Shown here: positions 539-48,899 of the stretch, one piece after another | Layout: the number at the start of each line of letters is the position of its first letter | Position numbering within the stretch: position 1 is the first letter of the stretch | Assembly: GCA_900128565.1 (NCBI GenBank) | Contig: LT635925.1 | Span: forward strand, 1-48,899 | From: Stramenopiles sp. TOSAG23-6 | Taxonomy: Eukaryota | Direction: 5' to 3' | Length of the DNA stretch: 48,899 bases | Notes under the pieces: model-generated | The model's database searches: none | Told to the model about the DNA's origin: nothing | The model's input: only the letters and a program-made list of their open reading frames with translations | Translations under genes and position numbers: made by a program

Positions 539-1180
539 TTTCACAGAAATTTGAAACGAGTTGGACTGTAGAGAACACCGGAATTAATCGAGTCGTTTTC
601 AAAAGAAAGAGAACTCAACAATAACAAATAAAGATAGATGAAATAGTTAATTTGTTACAACAATGATTAAATTGCACGAAAAGATAAGCAATTATTCAAC
701 CCTTCGATTCGACAACAACAACACATACAAAGAAGAGAATCTGATAGTTTCATTTTCGAATTTGAATTTGAAATGCATTTGAAATTCAAAAAATAATATT
801 ATAAATTTAGAAATTGGAAGAAAATGTCTTGATTTCGTGTATTGGTCAACGCGCGTGACAATTTTTATCGCGACATATATATGTACACTCCCTTTATTCG
901 TATTGTGGTACACAACAACTGTCGTCCGCGTGAAATTAAACGTGAATTTGTGTCACTTATATTTTTCTAATTTGTGGAGTCATACTTTTTAGAGGCATAA
1001 ACAGTGTCGTATATAAAATAAATACAGTATGAATTGGATAAAAACTCTTGCTAAAAAAGTGCAACACTCTATGGAGTTCATGCCAAAAGGAAAAAAATTC
1101 ATCAATGAAGCTGGTGGTAAAAATGGTACCACCAGCAAACATATCTACAAAAAAAACGAGAAAAAGACGTGATTCAAGTA
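1..1180. repeat. Inverted duplication: 1-62 is the reverse complement of 1119-1180 (1 mismatch)
   Basis: Direct base comparison; 1-55 is a perfect match to 1126-1180. Confidence 0.95.
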
Positions 1181-11544: not shown

Positions 11545-11904
11545 ATTTCCAATCCGTTATTCACGGGTATATTAATAATAATTGTAAATAATATATAATA
11601 CAAAGAGATTGTGCGTCAAATTCTTTTACACGGAGATCGAAAATTTAAATTTAATGCCTGTGTCACGTGTAACTGTTGGTTAAACTGTGCACTGCTATAT
11701 ATCATCTTTGCTAGCCCTAACCCTAGTACGTAATTAAATTTAATTGTCCTAATAATTTCGGTCCTAATATTTTCCTAATATTTCCGTTGCGGTCAAAAAG
11801 TCGTCAAAAAAATCGCTTCACGGTTTCTTGCCATCTTCTTCGCTGATGAAGTGTGTGAAAGAAGGTCCACACAATTATTTTACCTGTTGAATTTACCTTT
11901 CCCA

Positions 11905-15642: not shown

Positions 15643-17281
15643 ATGTCAGCATTATCACCTAGTAAATGCAAGGCATGCTCAGGTAAACATGTTGCTCATG
15701 TTTGTAGCCGTTCAACAAAGTATCGGCAAGATAATGGTGAATATGCCGGGAAAAGGCTTGCAAATAAGCGTCGAATGAATTCTGTAGGTCATGACGTAGA
15801 TAATATTGATCAGAAAGGGATAAAACGTCCACGAAAAGCATGTATGTATCCACGTGATAATGGAAGAGGTTCGCGGAGGACTTTTTTAAAATTAGCAAAT
15901 AGTTCAAAAAAAACGCCGAAGGACACTGTAGCTGATCTTCGCTCTGAATTATTGTCGAGAACTGTTGTTTACAACCCAGAAACAAAAATGCATTGCCGTG
16001 AGTGGGATACAACCGATGTTGTAAAGGGTGTAATTTCGGCCCTTCAAAAAAATGGTACACTGACTAGTTCACAAGTTGCATCAATAATTGGTGCCCCTGA
16101 AGGACACGTATGTTTTCATCTTGAATTTCAATTTTTTTTCTACCAAATTTCGTACCTAACGAATTTCAAGTGCAATATATTTTCCTAAAATACATGTTCA
16201 AGTTGTTTTAGATATTTTAGTGACAACTCCTTTAGCAAGTGAAGTTTTGGTTGGTACACGTGAACAAGTAAAAAAGTATACTGAAAATTTATCAAGAAGA
16301 GAAATACGGCGTCGTTTTAAAATGTTAGTAAAAGGTAATCCTGGTAGTTTGGCAGCCTTGGATGATAGAAAGAGCAAAAAAAATGAATCTAAAGGAAAAG
16401 TAATTGAATCCAAAGGAAAAGTAATTGAATCTAAAGTAGAACAAGTTGAATCTAAAGTAGAACAAGTTGAATCTAAAGTAGAACAAGTTGAATCTAAAGA
16501 AAAAGAAATTCAAAACCTGGTAATCATTGAAAGTATAGATAAGAAGTCTTCGTCAGTTACAAGTAATACTTGCAATACAAGTGATACGAATGAAAAGACC
16601 ACTACTCTTACTTCTAAGCCTAATGAAAGTGATGTGAATGAAAAAGCTGTTCAAGAATGCTCTCATCCGAATAGTCAAAAATTAGAAAACGAAAATGTTG
16701 TAGTAAAGACAAATATTTCTCCAACCAAAGTTACAGATTTGGAGAAGAAGGAGGATGATATAGGGCATACTTCATCTGTACCTCCTTCATCAATACATAA
16801 TAAGCAACATAATACTATTACGGCTTCTACTGCTTCACCATCCAAAACAACTACGCCTTTAGTAGCACCACCAGCAACAACACAGACAACATCCCAGACA
16901 ACATCTCAAACAGCTTCATTACAAGAAATACCAGCAACAACAACAACAACAACAACCATGAAAATACTAACAAAAAATTTCACTCAGGATATAAAACCAA
17001 CTGTTACACAAGATGGCCTGACTGTGACGTATATTTATAGAGACGGAAATCCGCTTCCATCAAGCATTCCATTAGGTAATATTGCCGATGCTATTAGATT
17101 AGAACGATTGCTCGTTCTTCGTAGCTCATCAAGAATCAAAATGTATAAAGCTGAAATGAAGAAACCTGTGAAAGAACGAAAGGTTCAAGATTTGTTGAAG
17201 AGGTATATTAAAAGTCATAAAGAACTGAATAGAAATGATTTCTATTCAGCAATTGCAGAAACCTTATTATCAGAGGAGTGA
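15643..17281 (+). CDS. Hypothetical protein with CxxC-x3-HxxHxC knuckle and HTH-like segment; exons 15643-16107 and 16196-17281
   Basis: Two ORFs join in frame when 16108-16195 is removed, giving LTSSQVASIIGAPEGHVQVVLDILV. Confidence 0.7.
16108..16195 (+). other. Non-canonical intron-like element I1 (GT...AT, 88 nt, phase 0)
   Basis: GTATGT start, TACCTAAC at 16153-16160, ends AAAATACAT|GT; removal restores the frame. Confidence 0.75.
16385..16500 (+). repeat. 21-nt coding tandem repeat (ESKGKVI / ESKVEQV, about 5.5 copies)
   Basis: Visible in DNA and protein. Confidence 0.9.
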
Positions 17282-17339
17282 GTAAAACATATAAAGTGTG
17301 TAATATAGTATAGTATAGATTCAAATTTATTTTAAATCA

Positions 17340-19556: not shown

Positions 19557-19999
19557 TGAAACAATTGAAAATAAGCGCCAATCAAAAAAAGGTAAAATGT
19601 CGCGCAATAATATCAATAAAAATATTATATTGAATCCAATAATATGTGTGAATGTGAGAAAGAAAAACATCAAAACAATATCAATAATATTTTGATGATG
19701 ATTTGCAATTTTTTGACACTTTGCTGAACCTTTTCAAAACTTATATTTCGTGTTGTTCAGTGCTGCGTCACCATCTTGGGGGAATCGTCTGCCGATTATA
19801 AGGACTTAGAAGCTATAATGTCATGTGTAATGCTGCAGAATACATACATTAATCACAACGGTCGATAGCATGTGATACAACATACTAGATTTTTTCATCT
19901 GTTTGGAAAAAAATTCTAAAATATAACATAATTTATAAAATGATGAAAAATATCAAAACCAACAGAAAATAAATGTGGTCAGCACTACAACCGTATTTT

Positions 20000-20449
20000 C
20001 TATCGACGCAAAGTTTTACGAATCAGACAATATACATTAGAATCTAATTCAATATTAATAAGATGCCTCTGTTCGCCTTTAATACACATCAGCAAGCCAC
20101 CGAATGAAACATATGCAGCAACACGGTGTTCTTTCTCGTGCTCGTATTTGAAAACTTTACCGTACATTCCGTACTCATATTTATCCAAAAGCGTAGGTTT
20201 ACCAGATTGATCAAACTCACCCGAATCTGGCTTTCCGTCTAAAGATAATGTTCTCGCAAGCGCAAAACTAATCTTTTCACCTTCATAGATTGGATATGCG
20301 TCAGTATTAATGTCAATGACAAGGTCGGTTTCATAAGCAACACCTTTACACTGAATTCGGTCAACTTTGTCGAACTTTTTACCATCTGGATTCTTTACAC
20401 GAACATCAAAAAGATCCTCAAAGAGAATAGAACTAGATCTATCACTCAT
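20000..20449 (-). CDS. RPB8: RNA polymerases I/II/III subunit RPABC3
   Basis: LFEDLFDV...DGKKFDKVDRI, YEYGMYGKVFK, YVSFGGLLM. Confidence 0.96.
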   Translation of the reverse strand: MSDRSSSILFEDLFDVRVKNPDGKKFDKVDRIQCKGVAYETDLVIDINTDAYPIYEGEKISFALARTLSLDGKPDSGEFDQSGKPTLLDKYEYGMYGKVFKYEHEKEHRVAAYVSFGGLLMCIKGEQRHLINIELDSNVYCLIRKTLRR

Positions 20450-20747
20450 TATACAATTACTACTATCCAGTCGTTAGATATCTAATTGCTATCGCGAGAG
20501 AATTTCACAAGAAGTGCTTGAATATAGTTATGCGAGTCGTTGATTTGAGTAGAGAGAAGCCAGTTCACTATAAAAAAAACGGATGACGGAACAGGTTTGT
20601 TCTTTCGCGATTTGCTACCACGCTCTTCAGAGTCCTTCTTAAACCTGTGCAATTTGCAAAAGAAAAATATTATTCTGAAAATACGCGAAATATTTATACG
20701 ACAACCCAACTCAAACAAAGCTCCATACGAATCGAGTATCAATATCA

Positions 20748-22025
20748 ATGGGTAGGATGCTGAAATTTATGCCACTTAGGTCTTTAAAAATGCAGCTTTA
20801 TCGGATGCGTGGTCGTCCAATAAAATACTTTGGCAATTTCGTTCACGACGGTATAAAATCTTCCCATAGACAATTTACAAATGTTGTATTAACTGAGTCT
20901 TTTTCTTCAAATGAGTCTTCTACAGTAAGCGATTTAAATTTGGTTTCAGAATTTGATACGTACCAGCCTTCATTATTAGATGAGCTGCACCTCCGTGTGA
21001 AGAATAGGCCACTGAAACACATTATTCTTCCTGAAGGAAATGATAAACGAGTTCAAGAAGCAGCTTATGAAGCCGTCACTCAAGGTTTAGCAAAAGTCAC
21101 TCTGTTCGTTGAATCGCCTCAAGAAGCCGCTCTTATTCCGCATGTGAAAGGGGTAAATGTAATTGTCCCCAATGATCATTCGGATATGAAACGTTTAGCC
21201 TCTGAATTTTATGCTGAACGTCTGAAGAAAAAATCGAATATTCTTGTTAAAGATACAGTTGACCCTCATTACTTTGCTAATTTGTTGGTGAAGGACGGCC
21301 AAGCTGATGGTGTAGTTGCTGGTGCTCTCTTAACTACTGGAGATGTTGTCCGTTCCGCCATTCAATGTATTGGGCCAGCAACTGGTAACTCGGTGATTAG
21401 TAGCTTCTTTATAATAGAATTTCCAGAGAATCATCCGAGGGCAGGCGCAGTTCTATTTGCAGATTGCGGAATAAACGCCGAACCAACAGCTGAACAACTT
21501 GCAGAAATCACTTTACAAACGGCATCCAGTGCGAATCAATTATTATCATCTACAGCATTACCACCGCGTGTGTCTATGTTATCATTTTCAACACATGGAA
21601 GTTCAGCTCATAAAAATGCAAAAAAAACACGAAATGCTTACGAAAAAGTATTACTGAAAAGGACTGAATTAATTTCCTCATACGAAAGTAGTAATACACA
21701 AAATACTGGAAAAACTCCATTTGGTACAGTTAATGAATTAAAAGAATTAATTATTGATGGTGAGCTTCAGTTTGATGCTGCTGTTGTACCAGATATTGCA
21801 AAGAAAAAGGCTCCTCAATCAGCAATACAAGGAAATACAAATGTTTTTGTATTTCCTAATTTAGACGCAGGTAACATTGCATACAAAATGGCTGAGCGTT
21901 TTGCCGGAGCGAAAGCGATAGGCCCTATCTTACAAGGTTTAAAAAAACCTTCAAATGATCTTTCTAGAGGTTGTGATATTTCAGATATTATTCATTCTAT
22001 TGTTATCACATCCCTACAAAGTTAA
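20748..22025 (+). CDS. pta: Phosphate acetyltransferase with N-terminal targeting-like extension
   Basis: IILPEGND, FADCGIN, MLSFSTHGS, DGELQFDAA, FVFPNLDAGNIAYK, GPILQGL, NDLSRGC. Confidence 0.94.
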   Translation: MGRMLKFMPLRSLKMQLYRMRGRPIKYFGNFVHDGIKSSHRQFTNVVLTESFSSNESSTVSDLNLVSEFDTYQPSLLDELHLRVKNRPLKHIILPEGNDKRVQEAAYEAVTQGLAKVTLFVESPQEAALIPHVKGVNVIVPNDHSDMKRLASEFYAERLKKKSNILVKDTVDPHYFANLLVKDGQADGVVAGALLTTGDVVRSAIQCIGPATGNSVISSFFIIEFPENHPRAGAVLFADCGINAEPTAEQLAEITLQTASSANQLLSSTALPPRVSMLSFSTHGSSAHKNAKKTRNAYEKVLLKRTELISSYESSNTQNTGKTPFGTVNELKELIIDGELQFDAAVVPDIAKKKAPQSAIQGNTNVFVFPNLDAGNIAYKMAERFAGAKAIGPILQGLKKPSNDLSRGCDISDIIHSIVITSLQS

Positions 22026-22146
22026 AACACATGTAAATGACTTCAAAAAGAAAAAAAAGTAATAAAAAAAAGTTTTTTTTACTTTGTCTAATTTATGAGA
22101 GTAAAAACATATTTCAAATTGTAATGGTAAGTACTACATACTGTAG

Positions 22147-24741
22147 TTATTCATTTGGATTTTTTCCAATAAAAATTGGTCCAAGGACTAAGCATGTCGT
22201 CGTCATTGTAGTAATAATTACGTGTAATGCTGGACCAGCTGTATCCTTAAATGGGTCGCCAACGGTGTCGCCAGTCACGGATGCCATATGAGCATTGCTT
22301 CCTTTCCCACCATGAGCTCCAGCTTCAATATATTTTTTTGCATTATCCCAAGCACCACCACTATTATCTAAGAACATTGCCATCATAAGCCCAGTGAGGG
22401 TTTCAAACATCATCATTCCACACAAAACTTCAACACCTAAGTCGTATTGACCAGTATATTCTCCGATAAATCTAAATAGTAGACCAATACAAATTGGTCC
22501 ACCTAAAGCAAAACATGCAGGCTTAATCATTTTCTTCAATGCTTCACCTGTGACTATAGCAACACACGCTTGATAATTTGGCTTTTGTTCATATTGAAGA
22601 ATTCCCGGCATTTCGTCAAGTTGTCGTCTAACTTCTTCGACAACCTTTTTTGCCGTTTGACCCACTGCATCAAGTGATAAGCCTACAAAAAGAAATATAC
22701 TCATTATTCCGAGTAACCCACCTACTAAAACTTCAATTTTACCTATATTAACATCATAAAAAGGTCTCCCAATAAATTCACTCATTTCATCTAAAAAGGC
22801 ACGAAATAATACAAAACATGCAAGTGCACTTCCTCCAACAGCATATCCTTTCGTTGCCGCTTTAGTAATGTTTCCAACCGCATCAAGTTCATCTGTAATT
22901 GCGCGGACTGTCTCTGGTTGCCCAGACATTTCAACAATGCCTCCAGCATTATCAGCAATTGGACCAAAATTATTCATACTCAAAACAAAAACAGCAGTAC
23001 ACAAAGTTCCCATCGTAGCACACGCTGTCCCGTACAACCCTGCAGCAACAGTGTTTGGTAAACCACTATTTTTACCTAAGTAATACGATACTAAAATAGA
23101 GATACTAAGTACAATTGTAGGTACAAAAGTTGATTCCATCCCAACAGAGATTCCAGATATAACATTTGTACCATGTCCTGTTGTTGATGCAGCAGCTATT
23201 TTTTGTACAGGTCCATGCGTATAATCAGTGTAATACTGTGTGGATAGAAATAGACAAAATGAGGATAAAATTCCAACTAAACCACATAGAAAGTAGTTAT
23301 ACCATGCAGAAGGTGCAATGGGGTCACTTAATAAAGCATAACAAGAAATAGCATATGTACAGATCGCACATATAATAGATATAATATAAGCATTCTGCAT
23401 AATTTTTAGTGGACTACCACGTGACGTTGAATTAACACACATAATACCAACAATACTTACAACAAGGTCAGTTCCATGAATAACTACAGGGAAAAACACG
23501 AAATGTTCAGGATTTGTCACACCTGACTTTGCCGCAAGTTCACCACCAAGAATCATTGCGCCTATAATTTCCCCACTAATTGACTCAAACACATCCGCCA
23601 TACTACCAGCACAATCACCCACATTATCTCCCACTAAATCTGCAATGACAGCAGGATTGCGTGGGTCATCTTCGGGAATTCTGTTTTCTATTTTACCAAC
23701 CAAATCTGCGCCAACGTCAGCTGCTTTTGTGTATATTCCACCTCCCAACTGCATAAATAAACCTACAAATGATGCGCCAAAACTATACCCAGCGATAAAT
23801 AAAGGAATTTTTTTTGAGTCCACGCCACCAAAATATGAAAAATTTAAGTAGGCTGCAATGTATAAAAGTGAAACTCCAAGAATGCACATTCCTGCTGACA
23901 ATATACCAGATACTGCTCCACCACGGAATGCTAATACTAAAGCTTCACGAGTCAGGCCACATGTATTGTGAAAAAAAATATCAACAAAAAAAAATTGTTA
24001 GGTATGAAATTTTGTACAAAAAAATAAATTTGAAGTTAGGGTGAGGGTTGATAATGAAAGCGTACGTGATGCTGCGCTGGCTACTCTGACATTAGCACGT
24101 ACTGAAAACCATACTCCCACATACCCTGCCAATGCAGAGCAAAACGAACCCAATAAAAATGAAAAACTTGTAAATAAGGCTAACGACAGTTTATAATTCT
24201 CCAATTCAGGAGAAATAGCTGGCCTATTTAAATATAGTAGACATAATAAACATGATGTTATTAAAGAAGATATAAATACGGCATAATACTGGACCTTCAG
24301 GAATCCATCCGCGCCTTCTTTTATAGTCGATGCGATCTCTTGCATTTCTACCGTTCCGCAGTCCGCTTTTAATATGCTCTCTGAAAGGTGTATTGCAACA
24401 AAAAATGAACCAAGAACGATTAATAGTGTCATCATCATATATACACCACCTATTTCACTTCCTAGAAATGCTACAGCTAATATAGCGAGTACATTTAGAA
24501 CCATGACAAAGGTTACTAAATTTCCTACCCATTTTGGGACATCTTGTGATGAAAACCTCTGAGACGAAGAGACAACCCTGGGAACTCCAAGCGATTTAGC
24601 AAGTCCCATAGGAAGACCAAAACGTGAGGATATCCCTCTATTTTTTCGTTGCGAGTCATCATCACGTGGCGACGAGGGTATACCTGCTGAACCTCCTTCA
24701 AGACTAGTATATTGATGACCGCCTCTTCGTGTAGGTAACAT
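22147..24741 (-). CDS. Membrane H+-translocating pyrophosphatase, K+-independent (AVP2-like); exons 24741-24066 and 23960-22147
   Basis: GGGIYTKAADVGADLVGK, EDDPRNPAVIADLVGDNVGD, GNITK (Lys type), GDTVGDPFKDTAGP; the halves join as RVASAASRGLTREALVLAFRGG. Confidence 0.95.
23961..24065 (-). other. Non-canonical intron-like element I2 (GT...AT, 105 nt, phase 1)
   Basis: GTACGC start, TACCTAAC at 24004-23997, ends CACAATACAT|GT; contains an in-frame TAA, so it must be removed. Confidence 0.8.
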
Positions 24742-25005
24742 TCTCTACAATTAGATAACCTATAATTCCTATAATTTCTGGAAGCAACAACAACAACAAG
24801 CACCGAAGTCCTTTGAATTCACATTCAAAAATACACGAAATCCTAAGAAAAAATCGGAACTCACAATTTAATTGATTGGAGTCAAATTGTGACTGTCATA
24901 ATATTAAAGCTGCATTCGCATAAATTGTTCTTCTGCAGGTACTACTGTAACCAAATTCTAAAAGTTTTGCTTCATACTCTGCTAGGAAAACCATTCTAGA
25001 TAAGA

Positions 25006-27866
25006 ATGGCTGGATCAGTGTAAGTTTTGTTCATTTGTATTATTTTTCTACACAAACTTGGTACTTTATTGGGTACATTTTTAGATAATATAGTTATTCT
25101 CAATGGAGAGTTTATCTCTGTTGAAAACTTGTTTATTTTTTATTTTTTGCCTAGTTGTCCTTAGAACTATTACACATTACATTACGTAAAGCCTTTTAAT
25201 TTCATAAAGTTATACTTGACGTATCCATTTTTCACTGTAGTACTTGCGATTTTGCAATCCTTGCGGGTTCGGACAGCGACGTCGAAGAAAGAATTCCTCG
25301 GAAGTCCAAGTCACAGCGTAAACGAAATAAAAAAAATAAAATGTCAAACTCTTTACAAACAACGAGTACACATGTACAAGATACTACATCGGTTGAAGTA
25401 AGTCATAATCCGGAAGATGCTAGTATCATACGTCAAGTGTGTCGTGGAGGTTTCTCAAAAAAGGAAATCGTAAATGCCTTGCAAAAGCTTCGAGCTCTCG
25501 ACTTTGTGATTGATGCTCGAAACGTTTTACAATACCTCAAAGAGGCAGATTTAAAAGAAGTATCCGGAGAATTATATGATCCATGCACTTCTGATTATTT
25601 TGCAATGTATGGAAAGAAAACCCCTACCCCTACTCAAAATAATTCTCCTTTCTACCAAAATTCATTCACAAATATACACTTGCCAAGGTCGTCCACTCCA
25701 GTTTTTGGTGGCAAAAATCAAACTAAAAATACTTCGCCAACAACGTCAACCATAATTAATGTTGAATCTAAATCTATGAACAATGAAACCGTCATTGAGA
25801 ATCAAAAGCGAACTCTTGAAAAAGTGTCTGATCTCGAAAATTTAGAAGAAATTCTTGATGCGTTGTCCTCCTATTTTAAAACATTTCCAAGTATGTTTTC
25901 AAAATTGAATGTAAAATATTTTTCAAGTTCGAATTTATTTTTTTAAAAAATTTTTCGTAGTTAATTTTGTACCTAACAAAACCTAACGAAACCTAACAAA
26001 ACAGTTGAATGTAAAATATTGTTTCACAATACATGTATGTTTATTTTTTTCAATTTGGAATTTTTTTTTCGTACAAAATTTCGTACCTAACAAATATATA
26101 TATATATATATATACTTTTTCATAATACAAGTATTATTCCAGTATTTTTTGAAACTTCTGCCTTACAAAAAATACTGATGAATCTTTACACGAAATCATA
26201 CAAACCAAAACGAATTGACAAAAAACTAAAATTATTCTTTGAAAGACTTTTTTTTCAGAAATTGGAAAATCAGAATTTGAACGCAAGTGAAAAAGAAAGA
26301 AAAATATTTCCTCAAAATGTTGTTGTCTGTGTTATCCGTGATATTTTTAATGTAGTATCCAATTGGAAACATTCTGAGAATTCTGACTTACCACAATTAA
26401 GTGAGATTATTGAATGGATCTCAAGATGTATAAAAGAAAGTTGTGATATATTCAAAACTTCAACTAAAGCATTTTTAGTATGTACAGAAATGCGTAAGAA
26501 AATTGAGGAGACTCGAGAAAAAGCAGCAAAATTATTAACTGTACCATTGGGTATTACTAATACTTTGAATACAACTAAAACGATGTTTGCTCTGCGTGAT
26601 ATTCAGTATAATCTTGCGCGTTTGTATAAGCAAAAACAATGTATTTTTCAAATTCAAAATTCGTCAAGTGCGAAATTTGGTACCAATTTAATTTCAAATA
26701 CACCAAGTACTATGCTGACTGAATTGGTAGTAGACACCGCAACTGATGATCCCAAAACTGCATCACTTCAAAATGACTCTTTATTAACAGTTTTAAATGA
26801 AATGTCAAAAATAACGGATGAAGATTTCAAGATAAATGAAGAATATGAAAAAATACAATCTGAAATGATGAAAGCTCATGAAAAGAGTTGTACTGAAATA
26901 AATTGTAGAAAAGATGAAAAAATGAATCGAATAAAGACAATAAAAGAACAAAGAAGAAAATTATTGGATGAATTGGCAATTGTTGATGAAAGTCTCAGAA
27001 ATGAAGAAGAGGGGTATACAATGCTACTGAAAGAAAAGACAGATTTAGAAAGCAAACGTTTGGAGATTTTGAATTCAAAACTGGGACAATATGAAAAAAC
27101 TGTACAAATGGTGAAAACGAATAAAAAGTGTTTGGCAATGAAAAATCTTTTGATTTCTTTACGTACGAAATGTTCTGACAGTAGCCATATTTATCAAAAT
27201 AAATGTAGACAAACCTGTTTTGGATATGGAACGGATAAATATGAGGAAATGGTTCAAAAATCAAATCTTGAACATTATAATGCAGTGTTTGCGTATTTAA
27301 TGACAGAAATTAAATGTATTGATTACTTAAAGAATCGTATTAAAAACAGTACAACCGAGGAAAACTTTTGCAATAAAGAAATAAATTACTACCAGAATAT
27401 GGGAAGTATGAATAAAACCCTTCAAAATCTTATAGAAAAACGTACGAAATGTTGCCAAATTAAAAATGAAGATGTACAAGCTTCAGAAGCAATCTTGAGT
27501 TTGTGCCACGAAATATTTAAAGACGTTTGTTCATCAAGTAAAATATTGAAGAAAAAAAATAATGATAATGATATTCATAGTATTGATAATGATGAAATTG
27601 AAGCTGTACGTCGTCTAGTGATACCATTCAGACAACTTGGTATAGGATTGTCGAATGATTGGATACCTGGTGCAATAATTGAACCTATTTCTATATCTAA
27701 AGACTCATCAAATAATTTTGAAGACAATATTGAAGAAAAAAATCCAATATCGAACAAAATTATTGAGACGTCAAGCTCAGTGAAGAAACCACTACAAAAT
27801 GATTGTAATAATGACACGTCGCTTTCGAAGCATCTTACGTGGATTAGAACAACAAAATTAAAATAA
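25006..27866 (+). CDS. Hypothetical coiled-coil protein, possible UBA-like segment; exons 25006-25019, 25241-25890, 26131-27866
   Basis: All joins are in frame: MAGSVTCDFAILAGSDSD...KTFPSIIPVFFETSALQKILMNLY... Confidence 0.7.
25020..25240 (+). other. Canonical GT-AG intron (221 nt, phase 2)
   Basis: GTAAGT donor, CTTGAC branch candidate at 25215-25220, pyrimidine tract, CTGTAG acceptor; links ATG 25006 in frame to the downstream ORF. Confidence 0.75.
25891..26034 (+). other. Non-canonical intron-like element I4a (GT...AT, 144 nt)
   Basis: GTATGT start, three ACCTAAC copies at 25971, 25981 and 25991, ends CACAATACAT|GT. Confidence 0.7.
26035..26130 (+). other. Non-canonical intron-like element I4b (GT...AA, 96 nt), abutting I4a
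   Basis: GTATGT start, TACCTAAC at 26084-26091, (TA)n tract, ends CATAATACAA|GT. Confidence 0.7.
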
Positions 27867-28030
27867 ATATGTTGTTTTTCAAGTATCTTTCTTTGGGTTT
27901 GAGAGAACATCAAAATATAAATTAAAATTAATAAGGATTGAAAAATGTTGTTTCACGATTACTAATTAAAAAAGAATAAAAAGTTTATCTTGAATAAAAA
28001 TTGATATTTTTATAGAAATGACATTAAACC

Positions 28031-29071
28031 CTAACTGAGTGCCGTTTGTAATGCTTGTTGTCCTCGTTTCGCCATTACACTCACTTCTCCTTTTCGTGTT
28101 TTATCAATAAAACCAATTTTTTGCGTGATTGAAGAATCTGGAACATATTTCCATGCGTCACTATATATAGGTTTATGTTTATTATGATTATTTGTTTTTT
28201 TTGGCTTTGGAAGTTCCTCAATATTGTAATGATCAAATCGTAAAGAACTATTAACAAGACTCTCCCCGGGGGATAAAATGTCGAGTTTATCTTTTTGTGA
28301 TGGATGTTCTTTCATCATAGACTCGAAGTGGCCGTACGGTGTTGCTTCAATAGCACCACTTGCCCAAAGACGTGGGTCTAATACCAATCTTTGCCTGGAT
28401 TTTGCTATACTTACTTGTTTATTAGAAGTGGCAGTATCTAATGTTTCTTCCGCGAGTCGTTGAAGAACCCGGCGAGTTGGATTATTTAAATTATTTGTAT
28501 TTACTCTTGGAAACATAATTGGCGTTTGTGGTGCAAAACCTGAAGGCGTTTCGGAATCTAAAAACATACCCCCTGTAGCTCGATTTGATAACTTTAGAAA
28601 GTCAGTAAATTGTCGAAATTTCATTTCTTTTAATGTTTTTGAATCCATCGACTCTAAGGAATTGGCCACACCATTCTGTATTTGGGAAAACACTTCATCA
28701 TGCCAATCAAGATACAACTTTGATTTCTTTTGTTTGTCCGTTTGTTGTTGCATTGTTAGAAAACGATCAATCTCTTCAACGAATTTCCCTCCTTTTTTCA
28801 ATTTTACCATAGAATCAGCAAATTTCTTTTTTCCAATCTCTCTTTGGAGTTGTTTTTTTTCCTGGAAACGGTAGTCACTTTCTTTTTCTTTTAAAGATTG
28901 CATCTTGATCCATTGTGCGTATCGAAGTTTTGCTCGAACTAATTCTTTTTCTTTTGGAGTGAGCTTCTTTCTTGGCTTTAGAAGTTTGTTTGTTTGCGTT
29001 GGAGATGATAGACCATTGGTCAAACCAGCAAAAAGCTCTTTGTTATAGACTTTACAGGTATCGGAGGACAT
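28031..29071 (-). CDS. Hypothetical protein, FAM228-like (possibly ciliary)
   Basis: 346-aa ORF; FVEEIDRFL...KKSKLYLDWHDEVFSQIQ resembles FAM228 from memory. Confidence 0.5.
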   Translation of the reverse strand: MSSDTCKVYNKELFAGLTNGLSSPTQTNKLLKPRKKLTPKEKELVRAKLRYAQWIKMQSLKEKESDYRFQEKKQLQREIGKKKFADSMVKLKKGGKFVEEIDRFLTMQQQTDKQKKSKLYLDWHDEVFSQIQNGVANSLESMDSKTLKEMKFRQFTDFLKLSNRATGGMFLDSETPSGFAPQTPIMFPRVNTNNLNNPTRRVLQRLAEETLDTATSNKQVSIAKSRQRLVLDPRLWASGAIEATPYGHFESMMKEHPSQKDKLDILSPGESLVNSSLRFDHYNIEELPKPKKTNNHNKHKPIYSDAWKYVPDSSITQKIGFIDKTRKGEVSVMAKRGQQALQTALS

Positions 29072-29393
29072 ATTGAGTACTACGTACTATTAATACTAAC
29101 CTTATACCTACTATATATTCAAGAATATATCTTATCGCTATTTAGGACCGAAAAAAATGTAACTGCCGCCACGACTACGTAGTACTACGGAAGGACTTCT
29201 ACTATTATACGTTGTAGTGGCATTCAGTACGTATTAATATCTACTATTGTAGTAGTATTAGTCTTACTTTAACATTAGACAAAACTAGAAGAGCAACATT
29301 ACAATTGAGTTTGGTGGTACATCATAGGAATACAAAGGTGCCATAAATATAGAGTATACATTTATTACAAATATTACAAAAGATACCACAATA

Positions 29394-32300
29394 ATGAGGT
29401 CAATTCGTCCTGAGAGAAAGCACTTCAAGAGACAAAATAGCAATAATATTGTGTTTCAGGATGACTTTGCAGAAGCCAATAAAAAGTCAAACAAACATGC
29501 AGTTGAAGAGAAAACAAACATTTCTGTGTCAAAAATACAAAATCAATCCAACGATTTTCGACATAGAGCAAATAATCATCGTCAAGTAGATGAAACTCTA
29601 CAAAATCACACACATCATTCAAAGTATCATAGTCACAGGTACGCTACCCAAAATGAAGACTTTTCTTCAGCCACACAAAAGCACAAACGTGGTCAATATG
29701 ACTACGTCAATCAAAAGCAATCACAATTACAATCCTCAATATTCGATGATCCTTCGGAAGAACCATCAATTCAGCATAGGTATCAAAGAAATTGGACATC
29801 GAAAAAGAATCCGAATAAACTAAAAAAAAAGGGAAAATATACTGAGTATCCTATCTACTCTAACCCTAACCTTTCTCCCAACAGACCCTCGCAACGTCGA
29901 TATGAGAATTCTCTCTCAGATTCTTTTAGTGACAATATTGAAGATGATTATAGATATGAGCAATCCCGTTCTTATAGTAGTGAACGATCTCAAGGTGGAC
30001 GTCATTTGAAAAACCCGAATTGGAGAAGTTTTAAAAACCATGACACTCCACAAAAACAGAGACGCAGACGAGATGTAGGTATTCAAAAATATCGTGAGGG
30101 TAATAAAAATGGTGAGAGGCATATTCAATGGAAAAATAATCCAAAATATCAAAATAATCCAAAACAACAAAATAATCAAATATATCAAAAAAATCAAAAA
30201 TATCAACATAGTAATCAAAAATATCAACATAATAATAATGGGAAAAGGTCTCAATATAGTGAAGATTGGCGCAAAGATCTTGAACGGCTTGATAATTATG
30301 AAACACAAGATACTGCAGTAGAAAGTCTAAATGTTTATATTACACGAAATATCATAAATTTTTCACAATTTCGAATATTTTTGTCTGCATCAGAGAAAAT
30401 TTTGAAAAAGTTTCGTTTATCCTCCGCAAAGGAATTAATGGGGAATTTATTAACAAATGTAACAAAGCGATATAGACTACACTGTTGTAAGAGTAGACGT
30501 CAAATTATGCGAGTCATTTTGCGCTTTATAGAAGATAATGATATTAAAGTTCGTCTATCTGGTGCTCGACTTTTACAATCTCTAGTTGGTCGTGTATTTC
30601 CGAAATTAAATGAAACGAGTTCTGGCGGTCGAGGAGCAGCAGCTATGCAACCCAATATTAACCCCAAGGCTCAATTTACGGAAATTATTCTCTCCCCCAT
30701 TTTTGAAATATTGAAGAGTAAGAGTTTTGAATCTCAGCGACAAGGTGCAGCATTATGTCTTTCTTATCTTGTAGCCCAGCAAAAAGCCTCAGCTGTAGAT
30801 TTATTGGCGTCTTCTCTTGGCTTCATAGCAACAAAACTTCAGCAATGTATCTGGACTGAGCGTGGTCGAGCAGGGTCGTTCCTCTGTGATGCAATTTCCA
30901 ATTTAGTAAATTCGGTTGGACCTCGAACTAGTGCGCCACATATTGAGCGGTTTGTCGAATGTATGTTACATTGTTTGCATGATAAAGATACAGCATGGCA
31001 AATGTGTACATCTGGAATTCATTCATTATCCGTTTTAGGTACTTTAGGTAGGCATTCAGGAACAAATCTAAAATACCAAAATAAAATATTACCAGAAAGA
31101 AAATTAAATGAAATAAATTTGAAATTGGAAGATTTGATGCACTATCACGAAGTGAATAAAGTGCGCCAAGCTGCTCAAGATGCACTTGACAAAATTAATT
31201 CGAATCATTCAAAACAAGAATCAAGTGTTTCAAATAAACATCAAAATGTTGAGAATGATCAATATAATCCATTACTTTGGTACAAAAAAAAATATAATAT
31301 AATGAATAAAACAGACGCACCTAAAACTGTTGTTTTACAAAGTAGCAATATAGGGAAATATTATATTGGGCAAAGTGTATCTGGTTTAGGTGAACAAAAT
31401 GAAATTAGTGGAATTATAATTAGAAAAACAAATAATTCTGGTAAAATTTCAAATTCAAATACTGTAGAACCTGGGATTATAACAATACAAGTAGTGACAA
31501 GTGAAAATAAATCTGCTAAATATAATAATCATGATATGATTGATATAAATAATGATAACAATGATGAACAAGATAGTGATTCGTATTACATTCCCATTTC
31601 ACCAAGGAATCGACAGAAACGTAGAAATATCAGAAATATTAATAAAAATGAAAATACAAAACTTAGTGCTGCGTATCATCCACACTCTAATCCCCAAAAT
31701 TATTCAAGTTATAATGAATCAAATGAAAATGATGAGATGGAAATGGATTTTAAAATAAATGAAAAAAAGAAACATTTCGATGCACAAAATAAACACAAAC
31801 AAAAAAAACGAAATACTCACAAAAATTTACACGGAAAACAAAGTAGTAAGCCCAGTATATCACAACAAATACAACCTCAGCAAATGAAACTTCTTTCAAA
31901 ACACATGTCTGACTTAATGATGCAAAATAATGAGTTAAAGAGTGAAATAATAGAAATTCGTAAATCCATAGAACAACATCAAATGGAGCCAAAGTATAAA
32001 GTATATGAAAAGCAAGAGCAAAGCAGTACAAATAAAAAAATCATAATTCCAAATTTTGAAAAGAAAAATGAAAATGTTCAATCAGATAATACTTATAGGT
32101 CCAAAGATAACAATGATTTATATAGTTCCAAAGACGACAATAATTTACCCAACAATTTGAATATGATTTCGAAAGTAAAGTATGAGAATGAAGTGAGATC
32201 GGATGATATAGAAATTAAAAATGATACAANACATAAAAAAANGTCATAGAAANCAANGAAAACAAAGAAAACAAAAATATGAAAAACATGAAAAAAAGAA

Positions 32301-33450: not shown

Positions 33451-33878
33451 AATTTTTAATGATTGTTATAAATATATAAACAAAAATGAATTTTGTTTTT
33501 GAATATATATATTGGTCAATATGCTCTTTCCAATGTAAAGTGTCATATGATGCTGATAATAATTGCCTTGGAGTCTGGTTATTATATTGTTGGTCATCAC
33601 AAATCAAAAATAGCAAAAAACATCTAGTTTAATTTTTTAAATTTTATTTCAAAATAGCAATCCTTGAATTCGCGATCTGATCAAGTCAGCGCCGTAAACA
33701 GAATATAATTTAAATTAGTAATTACCCTTTATAAATTTAGCCCGCAAATTGAGAAATTGAATTAATAATATGCGTGTGACTGATCTGACTTCTGATCATC
33801 GATGATGCATGTGAACAATACGAATAGTACTCGTGAGTAGAGCTATTTAAGTAGACTGGTATCAAATGAAATAAGATT

Positions 33879-36800
33879 ATGCATAGTTCGATAACATCAA
33901 TGAAAGCTCATTCTCTCTTGGGTATTCCTGATGAAGAAGAATACACTATTGTCCAAACATCAGAGGAGAACGTTGCAAAAGTTCCCCAACCAGAAACATC
34001 TCGTCAACATACACTGCTACGCCGACACGACACGCCGCCACTCATTAAACTAGCAAACATTTCTGACCCCAATGGATTTACTGCAGTAATTCATGATCCA
34101 CTAGATAATCCTACAACATTCAATAGATCTCTGAGCTATACATCATCGTATACTCTTCCAACAGCACAAATTTCATCGGTAGAATTTTCAGAATTCGAAG
34201 GATACATTGCAGAGATTGAAAAGCTTCATTATAAGTTAGTTGAAAACCACAAAACGAATGGTGGCACGATTGTTGAAGAATCAGCATCAGAAGAAAAAAT
34301 ACGTCAACTTTTACGAGATGTAGAAAACGTTGTACCTAAATTATTTTTCAGCAAACAATTTGCCTTTTCCGATGCATCTACTTTTAAAACAGTGACAGAG
34401 TCGCATGTGAGAGAAAATAGCAACCTTTCAAACTTAGGTGCGATGAATTCTAATCGTAACTATGATAAAGGTGGACAGGTACAAGATGAAAATCTGTTTA
34501 ATGAAAACAATCAGCACAAAGAATGTATCCAGAAACTTTCGCAATATTTAGAATTTGTCGAGTTTGTCATGCTGACGATAGTTTCTTCTAGGTCTCAGTC
34601 ATTTTTTGGTGCTCTCGAAGGTCTACAACTTTTTAAATTACAAATATCTTCTACATGTTATAAAATTAGATCTTTACGTGGACTCTTGCGGAGACTTAAA
34701 GGTGCCTTAGTTACAGGTTCATTGAAAATTATTCAACTTCGTCGACGTCGAGCTAATGTTTGTTTTCATATCAAATTCTGTACCTATTTTGTTTTGTGGT
34801 TTTGTGGTTTTGTGCCAAATTCTGTACCTAACAAATTTCAAACTAAAACATATTTTTCAATTACATGTGAAAAAAATCCAAGAAAAACTTAATTTTGTGT
34901 GTGGTGCAATGCAGACTCAGGAGTTAGTACAATTATTACTAGAAAGTGAAAATTATAGTGGTGCCCTAGATGTCATTGATGAAGTAAGAAATACTTTAAA
35001 AAGAGAAATTTGCGGTTTACATGCCTTGCAATTTCTTGAAAATAAGTTAACTCAATTTGTCAATTTAACGTCTAATACAATGACAAGTCAGTTTCTACAT
35101 TTGGCAATGCATCTTGGTTCAAATAGCAGCGATAATACAAATATTGAGGATGAGTCATCTACAGGTATTTTGAACAATGACAAAAATAATATAAATACAA
35201 GAATTGCAAAAATGTCCACTTCCAAAGATAGAGCTCGTTTTTTCCGATTACTTCAAGGTCTCCTTCAAGTAGGGAAATTACGTACAGTTTTGCGAGAATA
35301 TCGAAATCGTGTTGCAGAAATGGCTACTTCTGTTGTAAAAACCGCCGTACAAGCTGCATTAGGGACCCATAATAGCACAGTTACTATGAATGAAAAGGAC
35401 TCTCTGCAATCATCTCCGAATTCATCCAACTTAAGTACAAAAAATACTACAGAAAAACGTCCATCTATCAGTGTTGTCCGCCAACTACAAATGTTGGACG
35501 AACATTCATTTTTAGAACTTTTCGATATTGTTCGTGAACAACTTGGAATAGTCATTATTCGTGCTGTTGCTGTACATGAAATATTACAGAATTGTCTTGA
35601 AAAATGTCAAAATGACGTCGAAAGACAAATTTCAGAAAAAAATATAAATAAACCCAATAATAATCTCCATGAGAAGAGTAATGTCGATATGAATAGAAAT
35701 AATAGTAATACTAAAACGAGTGAAATTTTCCAAGTAAAACTAAAAGATACAAAAGATACAAAAGATACAAAGGAAACAAAACCAAAATTGAATGAAAGTG
35801 TCACTGACATTTCGACTTCTCAGTTAATCACAAAAATCACAAATTCTGGAAATATTGTTAATCCTAAAATTTTAAAATTTCGTGTAGATAAAAAAACATC
35901 ACTGCGTGAAAGTCGGGAATCTCTAATACATTTTTGGGTATTAGCTCAACGGCATATCGGCCGAATGCTCGAAGTACGAGCTGAGCTTCACAAATCTTCT
36001 GCATTAACACAGATGAATCAACTATCGCTGAAGTGCACTTCTTTTATTCATCAATATGCTGTTCTTTGTGGGAGTGATGGAGCAGTACTGCTTAATGTAT
36101 TAAAGTCTCAATTACAAGATCAATTTGAAATGATGCACATGACACATATACAACATATGATGCATATTCTTGCTACTGAAAGTTGGGAATCTTACCAAGT
36201 GTCAAAATTGTTACAAAAATTGTTAGACTTTGTCATTGAAATTTGTAATGAAAAAAAATTGGAAATGGAAGATTCAACGAATAAATTGTACAATCTTACA
36301 AATACTCAAAATACACAAAGAATAACACTTATTGAAATGATAGAATATGTTGAACACTTTGAAGTATTTAGTACAAAAACAACTGTATTACCTACGACAT
36401 ATAGTAGTACAAAACAACACGAAAAGAAGAATCGCACAATACCAAAATTATCAAAATTATTTGCTAAATTTCATGGACAAAAACAGAAGATGTGTTCCTT
36501 AAAAAGCATTGACTATTGTGTACCAAAAGCTACAATATATGTCGTATATATTTTAACTACTTGTATTCAAACTTGTCGTCAATGTCCCCATTTATTATCA
36601 CAAGTAGTACAAAAAATTGTACTAACTATTCGGAAATATAATTTCCGTTCATCTCAACTTATTTTAGGTGGTAAAAGTGTCGAGTCACGAGACTCGCCGA
36701 TAAAAAAAGTGACTGCGAGGCATTTATCGTTGGTTGCACGAAGTCTCTCATTTTTGGTCGTTTTCGTGTCGGAAATTAAAAAATATTTAGGTATTACATT

Positions 36801-37290
36801 TAGTTCAGTTGAGGATAAAAAAAGTAATGATGCATTGCTGTCTGAAATATCAGGTGTTATATATGAAATGGAAACTCATAGAAGAAATATATTTAAAAAA
36901 TTAGTTCACATTACTGAACAGCTCTGTACAAGCTCCTGTCAAAGTGCTGTTGATGTAGCCACATCTGACAGTGTTGTTCCAATGGTAGTGAGTCCTTTTA
37001 TGTCAAATCTTACGAGAGGATTAACTACATTATATCGTGTATTACAGCATATACTTACTGTAGAAGATGTGTTGTCTATATTTACAGATGTGGTAACAAT
37101 GATGAATAATGTAGTTCCAAAATCCTATTCTTCGATAAAAGTTGAAAATATTTCAGATCAACAAAAAAAACAGATATTATTTGATATTGGACATTTAGTA
37201 TCTACATTGAAAAAAGTTCGTGGCCTCAGAGATCGTGGTAAAACAATTGATAGACACTTTAGAGACAGGTTTGTTCTCTGTATTATATAA
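33879..37290 (+). CDS. VPS54: GARP complex subunit Vps54; exons 33879-34757 and 34867-37290
   Basis: KLSQYLEFVE...RSQSFFGAL, RRRRANVKKIQEKL...QTQELVQLLLESENYSGALDVI, YNFRSSQLILGG, KKVTARHLSLVARSL. Confidence 0.88.
34758..34866 (+). other. Non-canonical intron-like element I3 (GT...AT, 109 nt, phase 0)
   Basis: GTTTGT start, TACCTAAC at 34825-34832, ends CAATTACAT|GT; no AG inside the element; removal restores the Vps54 frame. Confidence 0.82.
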
Positions 37291-43384: not shown

Positions 43385-44272
43385 TTACACATTCTGCACA
43401 AGGGCAGCACCGGCAACTGCTAAGCGATCTGCTGCTTCGTTTCCGGGTTCCCCACTGTGACCTTTCACATGTTCTAGTGTAACTATTACGTTCCATTTTT
43501 GTTTTAACTCAGTAATAGCTTTATCAATACTTTTCCACAAGTCAATATTTTTAACTAGAGAACCTTTAGAACTACGCCAACCATTTTTTTTCCAATTTTT
43601 TGTCCACATTTGTATACCTTTAATTGTGTACTTACTATCTGTTTTTATCAAAATTTCAAGCATTTTTGTATCATTCTTACTTGGTGTTGTATTTCTCTTT
43701 TCATTGATGAAATATTCTGCAACACGGAGTACTGCTGTCATCTCTGCTCTTTGATTTGTCTGTTTTTCTCCTTCAAGGGGTGCTGAAATATTGCGGATAT
43801 CACCATCACCAAACCATGCACCATATCCAGCTCTTGCAATGCCCTGATCTTGATTATTCGAACAAGCTCCATCTGTATATACAATAATCTGGTTTGAAAT
43901 ACTTCCAGGAGCATCACATCCCATAGTATCAGAGATATTACAATTTGGACGATGACGCTTGGTACTGCGAGACGTTGTCGAAGCGGTCGTTGGCATGAAC
44001 GGCTCTGAACGCTTCTTCGTCCCTGATAAATATTTTGAAGCACCATCAACTGAAGTGCTCACTCTCATAACACCAATACGAATATCTGTCGTATTTCCAC
44101 CGAGACCAACAAAGGCAGTTGCTTCAGATTTTGTTTTGAAACTTTTGTACTTCACACCACCTTTGACCCCGTTGACAAGTTTTTTGCACTCGTCCCACGT
44201 CTCAACAACACCACAAAAGCCACTTTTTCCTTTAACAATTGCGTAATATTTTTTACCCTTGGACTTTCCCAT
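43385..44272 (-). CDS. RNASEH1: Ribonuclease H1 with N-terminal hybrid-binding domain
   Basis: YYAIVKG...TWDECKKLVNG...YKSF; VYTDGACSNN, QTNQRAE, TDSKY, HVKGHSGEPGNEAADRLA. Confidence 0.95.
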   Translation of the reverse strand: MGKSKGKKYYAIVKGKSGFCGVVETWDECKKLVNGVKGGVKYKSFKTKSEATAFVGLGGNTTDIRIGVMRVSTSVDGASKYLSGTKKRSEPFMPTTASTTSRSTKRHRPNCNISDTMGCDAPGSISNQIIVYTDGACSNNQDQGIARAGYGAWFGDGDIRNISAPLEGEKQTNQRAEMTAVLRVAEYFINEKRNTTPSKNDTKMLEILIKTDSKYTIKGIQMWTKNWKKNGWRSSKGSLVKNIDLWKSIDKAITELKQKWNVIVTLEHVKGHSGEPGNEAADRLAVAGAALVQNV

Positions 44273-44613
44273 ATTCAACTACTGTTGATATCAATAATAA
44301 TACGTATTCAATATAATATTAAGCTAGACCTAATGAGTGTTTGTAGATATTATGCGGTACTCCCACCATGTAATTCTGATGGTACCGGTAGTATCGACTT
44401 TCATTCAGTAAGTCAGGTATATCGGTACATGGCCATTGGCCAGAGAATGCATTGCGAATCAATTTCTGATTGGCCAAGATGTTGATGTGTGTGGACATCA
44501 CCAACACTGGCATTACTTATACCATTAGTGTTTTGCCTTTGCGTCCTAGCATACTGGTACCACCATGTTATTATCTTTATGGTAACTAAAATATTTGACA
44601 CCAACAGACCGAA

Positions 44614-48811: not shown

Positions 48812-48899
48812 GTATGTTTTATTCTTTTTCAAATCCGAATTTGTTTTCGTACGAAATTTTGTACCTAACGATTTTTTTTTGAAATATTTTTCCAAAATA
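48812..48899 (+). other. Intron-like element I5 of the same family, truncated by the window end
   Basis: GTATGT start, GTACGAAATTTTGTACCTAAC, ends ...TCCAAAATA at the edge. Confidence 0.75.

Follow-up and report, generated by a model that had tools for sequence, protein, structure and literature searches.

The window analysed here is the whole of contig LT635925.1 of Stramenopiles sp. TOSAG23-6 (48,899 nt, forward strand), a gene-dense stretch of about 35 % G+C that is intronless for the most part; from resemblance, we take three of its intronless frames to encode a bacterial-type aconitase B (11779–14628), a phosphate acetyltransferase (20679–22025) and an RNase H1 (43385–44278). VPS54 is spread over two overlapping frames, 33870–34892 and 34726–37290, and when the segment 34758–34866 (intron I3) is excised these become a single open frame encoding a Vps54 protein of 1102 aa. 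The identity of the product is given by the Pfam domain PF07928 in the second frame (E-value 4e-20) together with the N-terminal coiled-coil region. The features of the locus, with I3 and its parts as predicted, are:

33879..34757, + strand: VPS54 exon 1; first ATG at 33879, second at 33900; final bases AT; matches the N-terminal coiled-coil region of Vps54 homologues
34758..34866, + strand: intron I3, 109 nt, GT..AT, phase 0, AG absent
34755..34765, + strand: I3 5′ splice site (−3 to +8), with which the changed U1 arm pairs; donor variant GTTTGTTTT, present in 6 of 189 introns
34761..34786, + strand: first copy of an internal duplication in I3 (44 nt spacing; repeat family D9), its branch motif lacking the final AAC
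34819..34832, + strand: extended branch motif of I3, intact, ending TACCTAAC; candidate branch A at 34831
34853..34866, + strand: degenerate 3′ motif of I3, TTTTTCAATTAC plus the terminal AT (family consensus TTTTYCAMAATAY-NN)
34867..37290, + strand: VPS54 exon 2, carrying the Pfam Vps54 domain PF07928

The original prediction of a GT-AT intron at this position started from the absence of AG, and inspection of 34758–34866 indeed finds none. One of the 448 tiles of 109 nt in the window is free of AG, and so are 90 of the 189 introns of the family described below; since AG-free members are so frequent, the absence in I3 is a trait of the family. The GT-AT join yields the peptide that had been quoted, within the 1102 aa open frame, and what had been said of the neighbouring AG dinucleotides is correct: the AG at 34881–34882 is out of frame with the donor at 34758 (stop at residue 309), with the donor at 34762 it creates a stop at the join itself, and joining 34758 to the AG at 34914 gives a product 16 residues shorter. 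The helix from which these residues would be lost, presumed in the prediction to be conserved in Vps54, is gap-free in 102 of 106 homologues. Five GY donors that had escaped notice are in frame with the AG at 34882 (34702, 34717, 34741, 34747 and 34807), and the complete list of joins between a GT or GC donor and an AG near I3 that keep the frame open comes to 65.

Canonical GT-AG splicing through other sites (34758/34914, 34807/34882 or 34747/34882) can draw on these 65 joins, on the near-universality of AG and on a public gene model from the same window that uses such joins (below), but every one of the 65 falls short of the GT-AT join by 22 bits or more, with residues inserted into or deleted from the gap-free helix, and the alternative donors lack the family motif. 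In the alignment to Vps54 orthologues, which the prediction had proposed as a check, the GT-AT join comes out best: against a profile built from the homologues alone it scores 159.4 bits in one gap-free domain, compared with 136.6 bits and an 11-residue insertion for the best canonical join (34807/34882) and 127.8 bits, broken into two domains, for 34758/34914. Pairwise, there is no gap within 12 residues of the GT-AT join in 102 of the 106 homologues and it outscores the 34914 join in 106 of 106, in a set of Vps54 segments chosen with the GT-AT join as query and hence somewhat biased towards it (150 Vps54-like proteins found via exon 2 and one distant word-index match, 106 of the 151 spanning the junction).

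I3 is very probably a real intron without a terminal AG, and we are equally sure of its mRNA product, which is fixed by protein homology. A 4 nt direct repeat at the junction allows five registers for this one mRNA (AT-AC, TG-CA, GT-AT, TT-TG and TT-GT); the register, very likely GT..AT, is read from the family and not from the I3 copy alone. It is from the computed frames, homology, family statistics and U1 sequence that we infer both the splicing of I3 and its register. I3, put forward as the strongest single case for a GT-AT intron, is well supported by protein alignment but poorly by its own sequence. Its 3′ motif gives the sole positive acceptor score within 34850–34885, with a value of 2.4, under the thresholds of our caller, and I3 lies outside the 189 strictly called introns. 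It appears to be an old copy, with 75 % identity to its best partner, an internally duplicated branch region and a worn 3′ motif. The distance from the candidate branch A at 34831 to the 3′ end is 35 nt, within the family range of 32–48.

Sister introns and the I3 family

Elsewhere in the window the following sister introns are predicted (a slash marks the exon–intron boundary):

16108..16195, + strand: sister intron, AC/GT..AT; a 556 aa frame once removed
23961..24065, − strand: sister intron in an H+-pyrophosphatase gene, AC/GT..AT; profile positions 3–103 and 103–645 abut
25891..26034, + strand: sister intron, first of an adjoining pair, AA/GT..AT
26035..26130, + strand: sister intron, second of the pair, GT..AA; an 808 aa frame when both are removed
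48812..48899, + strand: sister intron truncated by the contig end, the contig stopping just short of its 3′ end

At the H+-pyrophosphatase intron the GT-AT join scores 328.1 bits; of 43 canonical joins, the highest reaches 316.8. The one close protein found, the public P0002 (eukprot:GSMAST32...), equals the H+-pyrophosphatase of the window except for the gene model, which places a GT-AG join at this intron and also drops conserved coding stretches of plain open frames. The joins of P0002 look like those of a forced ab initio prediction, and the GT-AG join there looks false, so that the family goes unrecognised in the public annotation; where public gene models are wrong at family introns in this way, any phylogeny or metatranscriptome mapping based on such models is affected. 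The pair at 25891–26130 has no intervening exon, and a second such pair occurs in another record (L004), which points to recursive splicing or to an element that inserted at the end of an intron. We note also that the interior of a family intron is the start or end of many contigs, that the window begins with a 62 nt inverted repeat of 98 % identity (1–62 and 1119–1180), and that contigs C2, C4, C13/C14 and C27 are palindromic or duplicated; the inverted repeat and these contigs are probably amplification or assembly artefacts.

The element consists of a donor GTAYGTTTT, a long branch motif ending in TTTYGTACCTAAC and the 3′ motif TTTTYCAMAATAY. In the 21.1 Mb genome assembly the branch motif AATTTYRTACCTAAC has 8,928 matches (control, 1), and with the 3′ motif attached there are 3,406 copies ending in AT and 144 in AG (controls, 0), all these counts being raised by duplicated contigs. 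A matrix caller applied to 142 overlapping records (1.02 Mb) returned 189 distinct introns under strict thresholds and none in the reversed sequence; its matrices were seeded from AT-ending copies, donors were limited to GT or GC, and the final two bases were never scored. The median length is 98 nt, and length modulo 3 is unbiased. With the caller accepting GT or GC only, the donors are GT in 184 and GC in 5, and the ends are AT in 147 (about 78 %), TT in 15, GT in 9, AG in 8, AC in 3 and others in 7. The rule is thus wider than a replacement of AG by AT, since TT, GT, AG and other ends occur, mostly copying the end of the upstream exon. Similar introns occur at unrelated sites, 58 of the 189 having a partner of at least 90 % identity. 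The donor motif stands without the branch motif in 38 of 194 cases; the 12 of these listed include one family copy and the U1 gene, and the remainder look like chance. Density is very uneven: a 2021 aa Prp8 frame (L141:2586–8651, minus strand) has no family introns, and a gene in record L038 has 12 called introns over 3.3 kb.

When the segment from GT to the two terminal bases (NN) is removed, at least 50 open codons lie on both sides in 146 of the 175 introns with enough flanking sequence (14 of the 189 were dropped), compared with 12–13 when the cuts are shifted by 1 or 2 nt, 24 when unspliced and 52–54 with AG joins. The last figure, about a third, is the chance rate and tells against canonical splicing, as does the loss of conserved stretches in P0002; we regard the use of GT-AG joins at I3 as highly improbable. 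In 41 of the 189 introns an AG lying 8 nt or more beyond the branch motif is bypassed, and in 173 a YAT, which indicates that the 3′ site is neither the first AG nor the first AT. No AG exclusion zone was seen behind the branch point, AG being found 22 times against 68 expected in the 5′ part and 49 against 93 behind the branch.

The long frame is open on the strand of the element only in 144 of the 175 cases, on both strands in 2, on neither in 29 and on the other strand only in none, a bias (144 versus 0) that points to splicing of RNA and not to excision of DNA. It has to be weighed whether the elements are removed from DNA, as in ciliates, or are unspliced insertions or assembly artefacts, VPS54 being split or dead. 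The excision of ciliate internal eliminated sequences leaves one copy of a short direct repeat, which the repeats of this family resemble; family sequence is abundant in the contigs of RNA runs, and the assembly has duplicated and palindromic contigs. The elements are, however, strand-specific to genes, carry donor and branch signals and are matched to U1, the two halves of VPS54 are both whole and meet exactly in the profile, and the copies have diverged from each other, as would not be expected of an artefact. We find removal at the DNA level, or an artefact, hardly credible.

As to the RNA itself, the contigs of four RNA runs (X1–X4, from two studies), which cover 15700–32200 thinly and leave I3 outside, contain no joint at the four sister introns in that stretch. 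The exon pieces in them are near-identical to the window, and such joints as are listed connect paralogous copies with one another or belong to other organisms. Parts of the region are present in six RNA runs, with small shares in X2–X6 (0.06–0.12), and among 120 matches listed no short spliced H+-pyrophosphatase fragment of this organism exceeds 58 % identity. The family sequence in RNA-run contigs, poly(A) runs included, was seen with 15700–16250, 23965–24515 and 25618–26168 of the window; it may stem from introns retained in transcripts, from pre-mRNA or from carried-over DNA, with many paralogous copies contributing.

A changed U1 and the register of splicing

The U1 snRNA of this genome reads AAACGUACAUG and is changed at positions 2, 5 and 9, so that it is complementary to CAU/GUACGUUU. 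The match, which spans the full-length model and includes an Sm site, has AAACGUACAUGG at its start, against AUACUUACCUGG in the Rfam consensus, and scores 54.1 bits (E-value 4e-13), below the Rfam gathering score of 69.5. It is the sole U1 found, on two duplicate contigs, among the 41 of 253 candidates that were scored, and a second, canonical U1 may exist. Each change suits the donors of the family: A2 faces position +7, where 186 of the 189 introns have T (the canonical base would pair in 3); G5 faces +4, which is C in 77 and T in 105 (182 of 189; canonical base, 7); and A9 faces exon position −1, which is T in 166 (canonical base, 9). The mean donor duplex is −10.0 kcal/mol with this U1 and −2.4 with a canonical arm, the former being better in 182 of 189, and the values for the I3 donor are −6.1 and −0.8 kcal/mol. 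The arm pairs in the canonical register, which places the 5′ cut at AT/GT, and this complementarity supports the major spliceosome and GT..AT over AT-AC.

U2, U4, U5 and U6 were also found, with canonical recognition motifs (GUAGUA in U2, the U5 loop, and ACAGAGA in U6). The donor is of U2 type, its GT being complementary to U1 and its GUAYGU (+1 to +6) facing the canonical ACAGAGA box of U6, and the CTAAC core of I3 at 34828–34832 can pair with GUAGUA of U2, the upstream extension being unpaired. A terminal AG is absent, and the family is therefore a non-canonical variant and not a standard GT-AG intron. A near-palindrome, GTACRAAATTTYGTAC, lies 16 nt before CTAAC; 5 or all 6 of its pairs are kept in 117 of 189 introns, and it has no pairing with U2. 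It may fold into a hairpin in the RNA or be bound by a protein.

The same mRNA would result if the register lay 2 nt to the left, as an AT..AC intron removed by a minor-type or relaxed spliceosome. U12-type introns (AT-AC and variants) tolerate ends other than AG; their donors read ATATCCTT or RTATCCTT, with the branch site TCCTTAAC. The base preceding NN is C in about three quarters of the family, and the prediction had held that only I3 could slide to AT-AC, which is true of the five complete copies in the window but not genome-wide, where 115 of the 189 introns read AT/GT..AT. An A(+1)–C(−1) pair, moreover, is tolerated in the P-complex model, in the part of that account drawn on here (10.1101/212811). 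Against this register, I3 lacks the U12 donor, as had been stated, the family donor and branch matrices correspond to neither U12-type signal, and U12 and U6atac gave no match at E ≤ 1 in the assembly, itself incomplete. The pairing of U1 with the donors follows the canonical register, GT standing at +1, and the dinucleotide preceding GT is other than AT in 64 of 189 introns, whereas GT or GC, as the caller demanded, is constant. In 33 open-frame cases with unequal flanks the slide would be silent in 11, create a new Cys in 9 and a stop in 1, and in the H+-pyrophosphatase it turns R into C at a position that is R or K in 6 of 7 gap-free homologues (of 120) and C in none of the 7. The copies with unequal flanks give modest support to the GT..AT register, in line with U1 and U6, and we consider an AT..AC intron very unlikely.

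The Prp8 α-finger is the same as in human apart from KW to RF at 1514–1515 (residues 1351–1750 compared, human numbering), and contains no change that would account for independence from AG. The positions matching yeast Gln1594 and Arg1604, whose roles are described in the parts consulted of 10.1101/212811 and PMC12707134, are conserved, which fits the pyrimidine kept at intron position −3. Near human 1440–1452, a patch of ten residues has several substitutions in an otherwise near-identical region (L141). No U2AF35-like protein was found among 23 CCCH matches in the incomplete assembly, and a U2AF35 motif has 11 matches compared with 19 in controls. Yeast and C. merolae are reported, in the portion of PMC10158995 used here, to lack U2AF35 and keep AG, so that loss of U2AF35 by itself would not explain the change.

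The genes for U5, U2, U1 and U4 lie head to tail in a single 640-base cluster (L036:9–645, contig C1146), with U6 elsewhere. The spacers of 2, 23 and 5 bases are too short for separate upstream promoters, and the cluster may be transcribed as a single polycistronic precursor of these snRNAs. A B-box-like GGTTCGAATC follows U6 at a distance of about 180 bases (L033, about 770–780, minus strand); yeast U6 has a downstream B box.

Origin of the family and proposed mechanism

The terminal dinucleotide NN equals the last two bases of the upstream exon in 140 of 189 introns (shuffled mean 100), and in 25 of the 42 with ends other than AT (shuffled mean 2.8, maximum 10 in 20,000). A duplication of 3 nt is ruled out, position −3 matching in 71 of 189 compared with 66 expected. 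The agreement declines with divergence, from 52 of 61 among the youngest copies through 55 of 72 to 33 of 56 among the oldest. Of 16 young non-AT copies, 10 have an NN that agrees with their own flank and 1 has the NN of its closest sister, a comparison that serves as a test for target-site duplication in the part consulted of 10.1101/2022.06.06.494994. Since NN follows its own flank, the element itself would run GT..AC, with the duplicated NN supplying the 3′ end; the site-specific target-site duplication looked for in introners is present here. Matched TT exceeds matched AA by 13:1 (p 0.002), which suggests that splicing filters insertions for T at −1. The flanks are unequal in 49 of 189 copies, 9 of them among the 61 youngest, where they count against strict duplication, which does not predict them; 33 of the 49 end in AT. 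The commonest unequal class, a GT flank with an AT end (11 of 49), may be due to decay of CpG or to selection favouring AT. Terminal inverted repeats, as read from the matrices, extend over about 4 nt only (GTAY..RTAC/ATAC).

Splicing might proceed from GT to AT as proposed and the elements still have another origin, the repeat of NN arising from splice-site preference or reverse splicing with no transposase involved. All open-frame copies are in the sense orientation to genes, the inverted repeats are minimal, the 33 AT-ending copies with unequal flanks end so regardless of flank, and a strand-blind transposase alone would not be expected to favour TT over AA. Selection after insertion would explain the strand and TT biases, however, and near-identical sisters differ in NN (for example a CT/AT pair of 96 % identity), following their own flank as given above; reverse splicing would have taken NN along with the intron. 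We regard such an origin as unlikely and an introner origin as likely, and infer that the family has spread by transposition.

Taken as a whole, the reading of I3 as a U2-type GT..AT intron of an introner-like family with a recoded U1 is quite likely. In this scheme I3 would be an old copy of a short introner-like element (median 98 nt) present at thousands of sites, which contributes the donor, branch motif and 3′ motif and on insertion duplicates two target bases, mostly AT. The downstream duplicate would become the 3′ terminal dinucleotide, and splicing would restore the old coding sequence exactly. The major spliceosome would excise I3 from GT at 34758 to AT at 34866, U1 having been recoded to pair with the donor of the element, including U at exon position −1, and the 3′ cut may be placed by the motif and the distance from the branch point instead of by a scan for the first AG. 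In 3′ docking, A at −2 and the pyrimidine at −3 would hold their usual contacts and G(+1) would take U(−1) in place of G(−1).

It is tempting to go further and propose that the splice code of this organism has been rewritten, such that an introner with a 2 nt duplication dominates most or all introns, U1 is recoded for donor and duplicated AT, U2AF35 is lost and replaced by a positional reader of TTTTYCAMAATAY, and a standard core docks G(+1)–U(−1); we offer this joint reading tentatively, as less likely than not to be right in all its parts. If true, the organism would have a natural GT-AT spliceosome, with no privileged part left for AG. In the part of 10.1101/212811 consulted, the universal AG is explained structurally by the G(+1)–G(−1) pair, and a family of several thousand introns ending mostly in AT, with canonical U2, U5 and U6 and an unchanged Prp8 α-finger would be a natural test of how strict that pair is. 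The same organism would also test which of the factors that act in proofreading (Prp22, Prp18, Slu7, U2AF) have to yield.

Comparison with known systems

The published systems are compared here by those parts of the cited accounts that were consulted. In these, the nearest likeness is to Fritillaria borealis and F. pellucida, in which AT is the most frequent 3′ end (34 % and 44 %; PMC13326754, PMC11282704), and which share with this family the major spliceosome, AT as the top 3′ end and a proposed transposon origin. The YAY triplet that Fritillaria introns repeat, once ahead of the donor and once at their 3′ end, may be likened to the repeated ends found here, and the minor spliceosome, lost there, is represented here by no U12 or U6atac match in an incomplete assembly. 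The Fritillaria donors are, however, mostly non-GT (AG/AC, AG/AT), U2AF is duplicated, and no U1 variant dedicated to non-canonical sites is described in what was consulted of PMC13326754. In this unrelated lineage, by contrast, donors are GT in 184 of 189 (the caller allowing GT or GC only), AT makes up 78 % of ends, the branch motif is long and fixed, U1 has been recoded and no U2AF35 was found.

As in the introners of Micromonas (IE1) and Chrysochromulina, the 5′ site is carried by the element and the 3′ site comes from the target-site duplication (10.1101/2022.06.06.494994, PMC11282704), copy number is high, near-identical copies lie in unrelated genes and the mRNA is restored exactly. In Micromonas the co-opted 3′ site is AG and the duplications are of 3–4 nt, whereas here they are of 2 nt and AG ends occur in 8 of 189 only. 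The introns of Amoebophrya introners are likewise repeated, with direct repeats and non-canonical ends genome-wide (PMC11282704, PMC7789003), but for that organism U1 is reported to be apparently missing and the inverted repeats are pronounced, whereas here U1 is present and matched. With U12-type introns the family shares the possession of long conserved donor and branch motifs, but the sequences differ, and here there is complementarity to U1 and no U12 or U6atac match.

Coevolved U1 arms are described for Entamoeba (AACAAAC) and Mastigamoeba balamuthi (ACGUAC) (10.1101/2022.06.08.495308). The U1 core of Mastigamoeba is the same as here, and A2 lengthens the pairing as in Entamoeba; the change of C9 to A, pairing with exon U(−1), is found here and not in what was consulted of that account, which links the U1 change to donor motifs and not to loss of the 3′ AG. 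In the literature searched we found no report, for marine stramenopiles, of introns of GT-AT type or of an altered U1, and the introner family tables of 10.1101/2022.06.06.494994 may include this family. On these partial sources, AT 3′ ends (Fritillaria), duplication-derived 3′ sites (introners) and coevolution of U1 (Entamoeba, Mastigamoeba) are each already known. What is new, as a combination not found in that literature, is the association of GT donors and about 78 % AT ends derived from a 2 nt duplication with a U1 recoded at position 9 as well. As a clear instance of a spliceosome adapting to an invading element, the recoded U1 parallels, in an unrelated lineage, the YAY repeats of Fritillaria.
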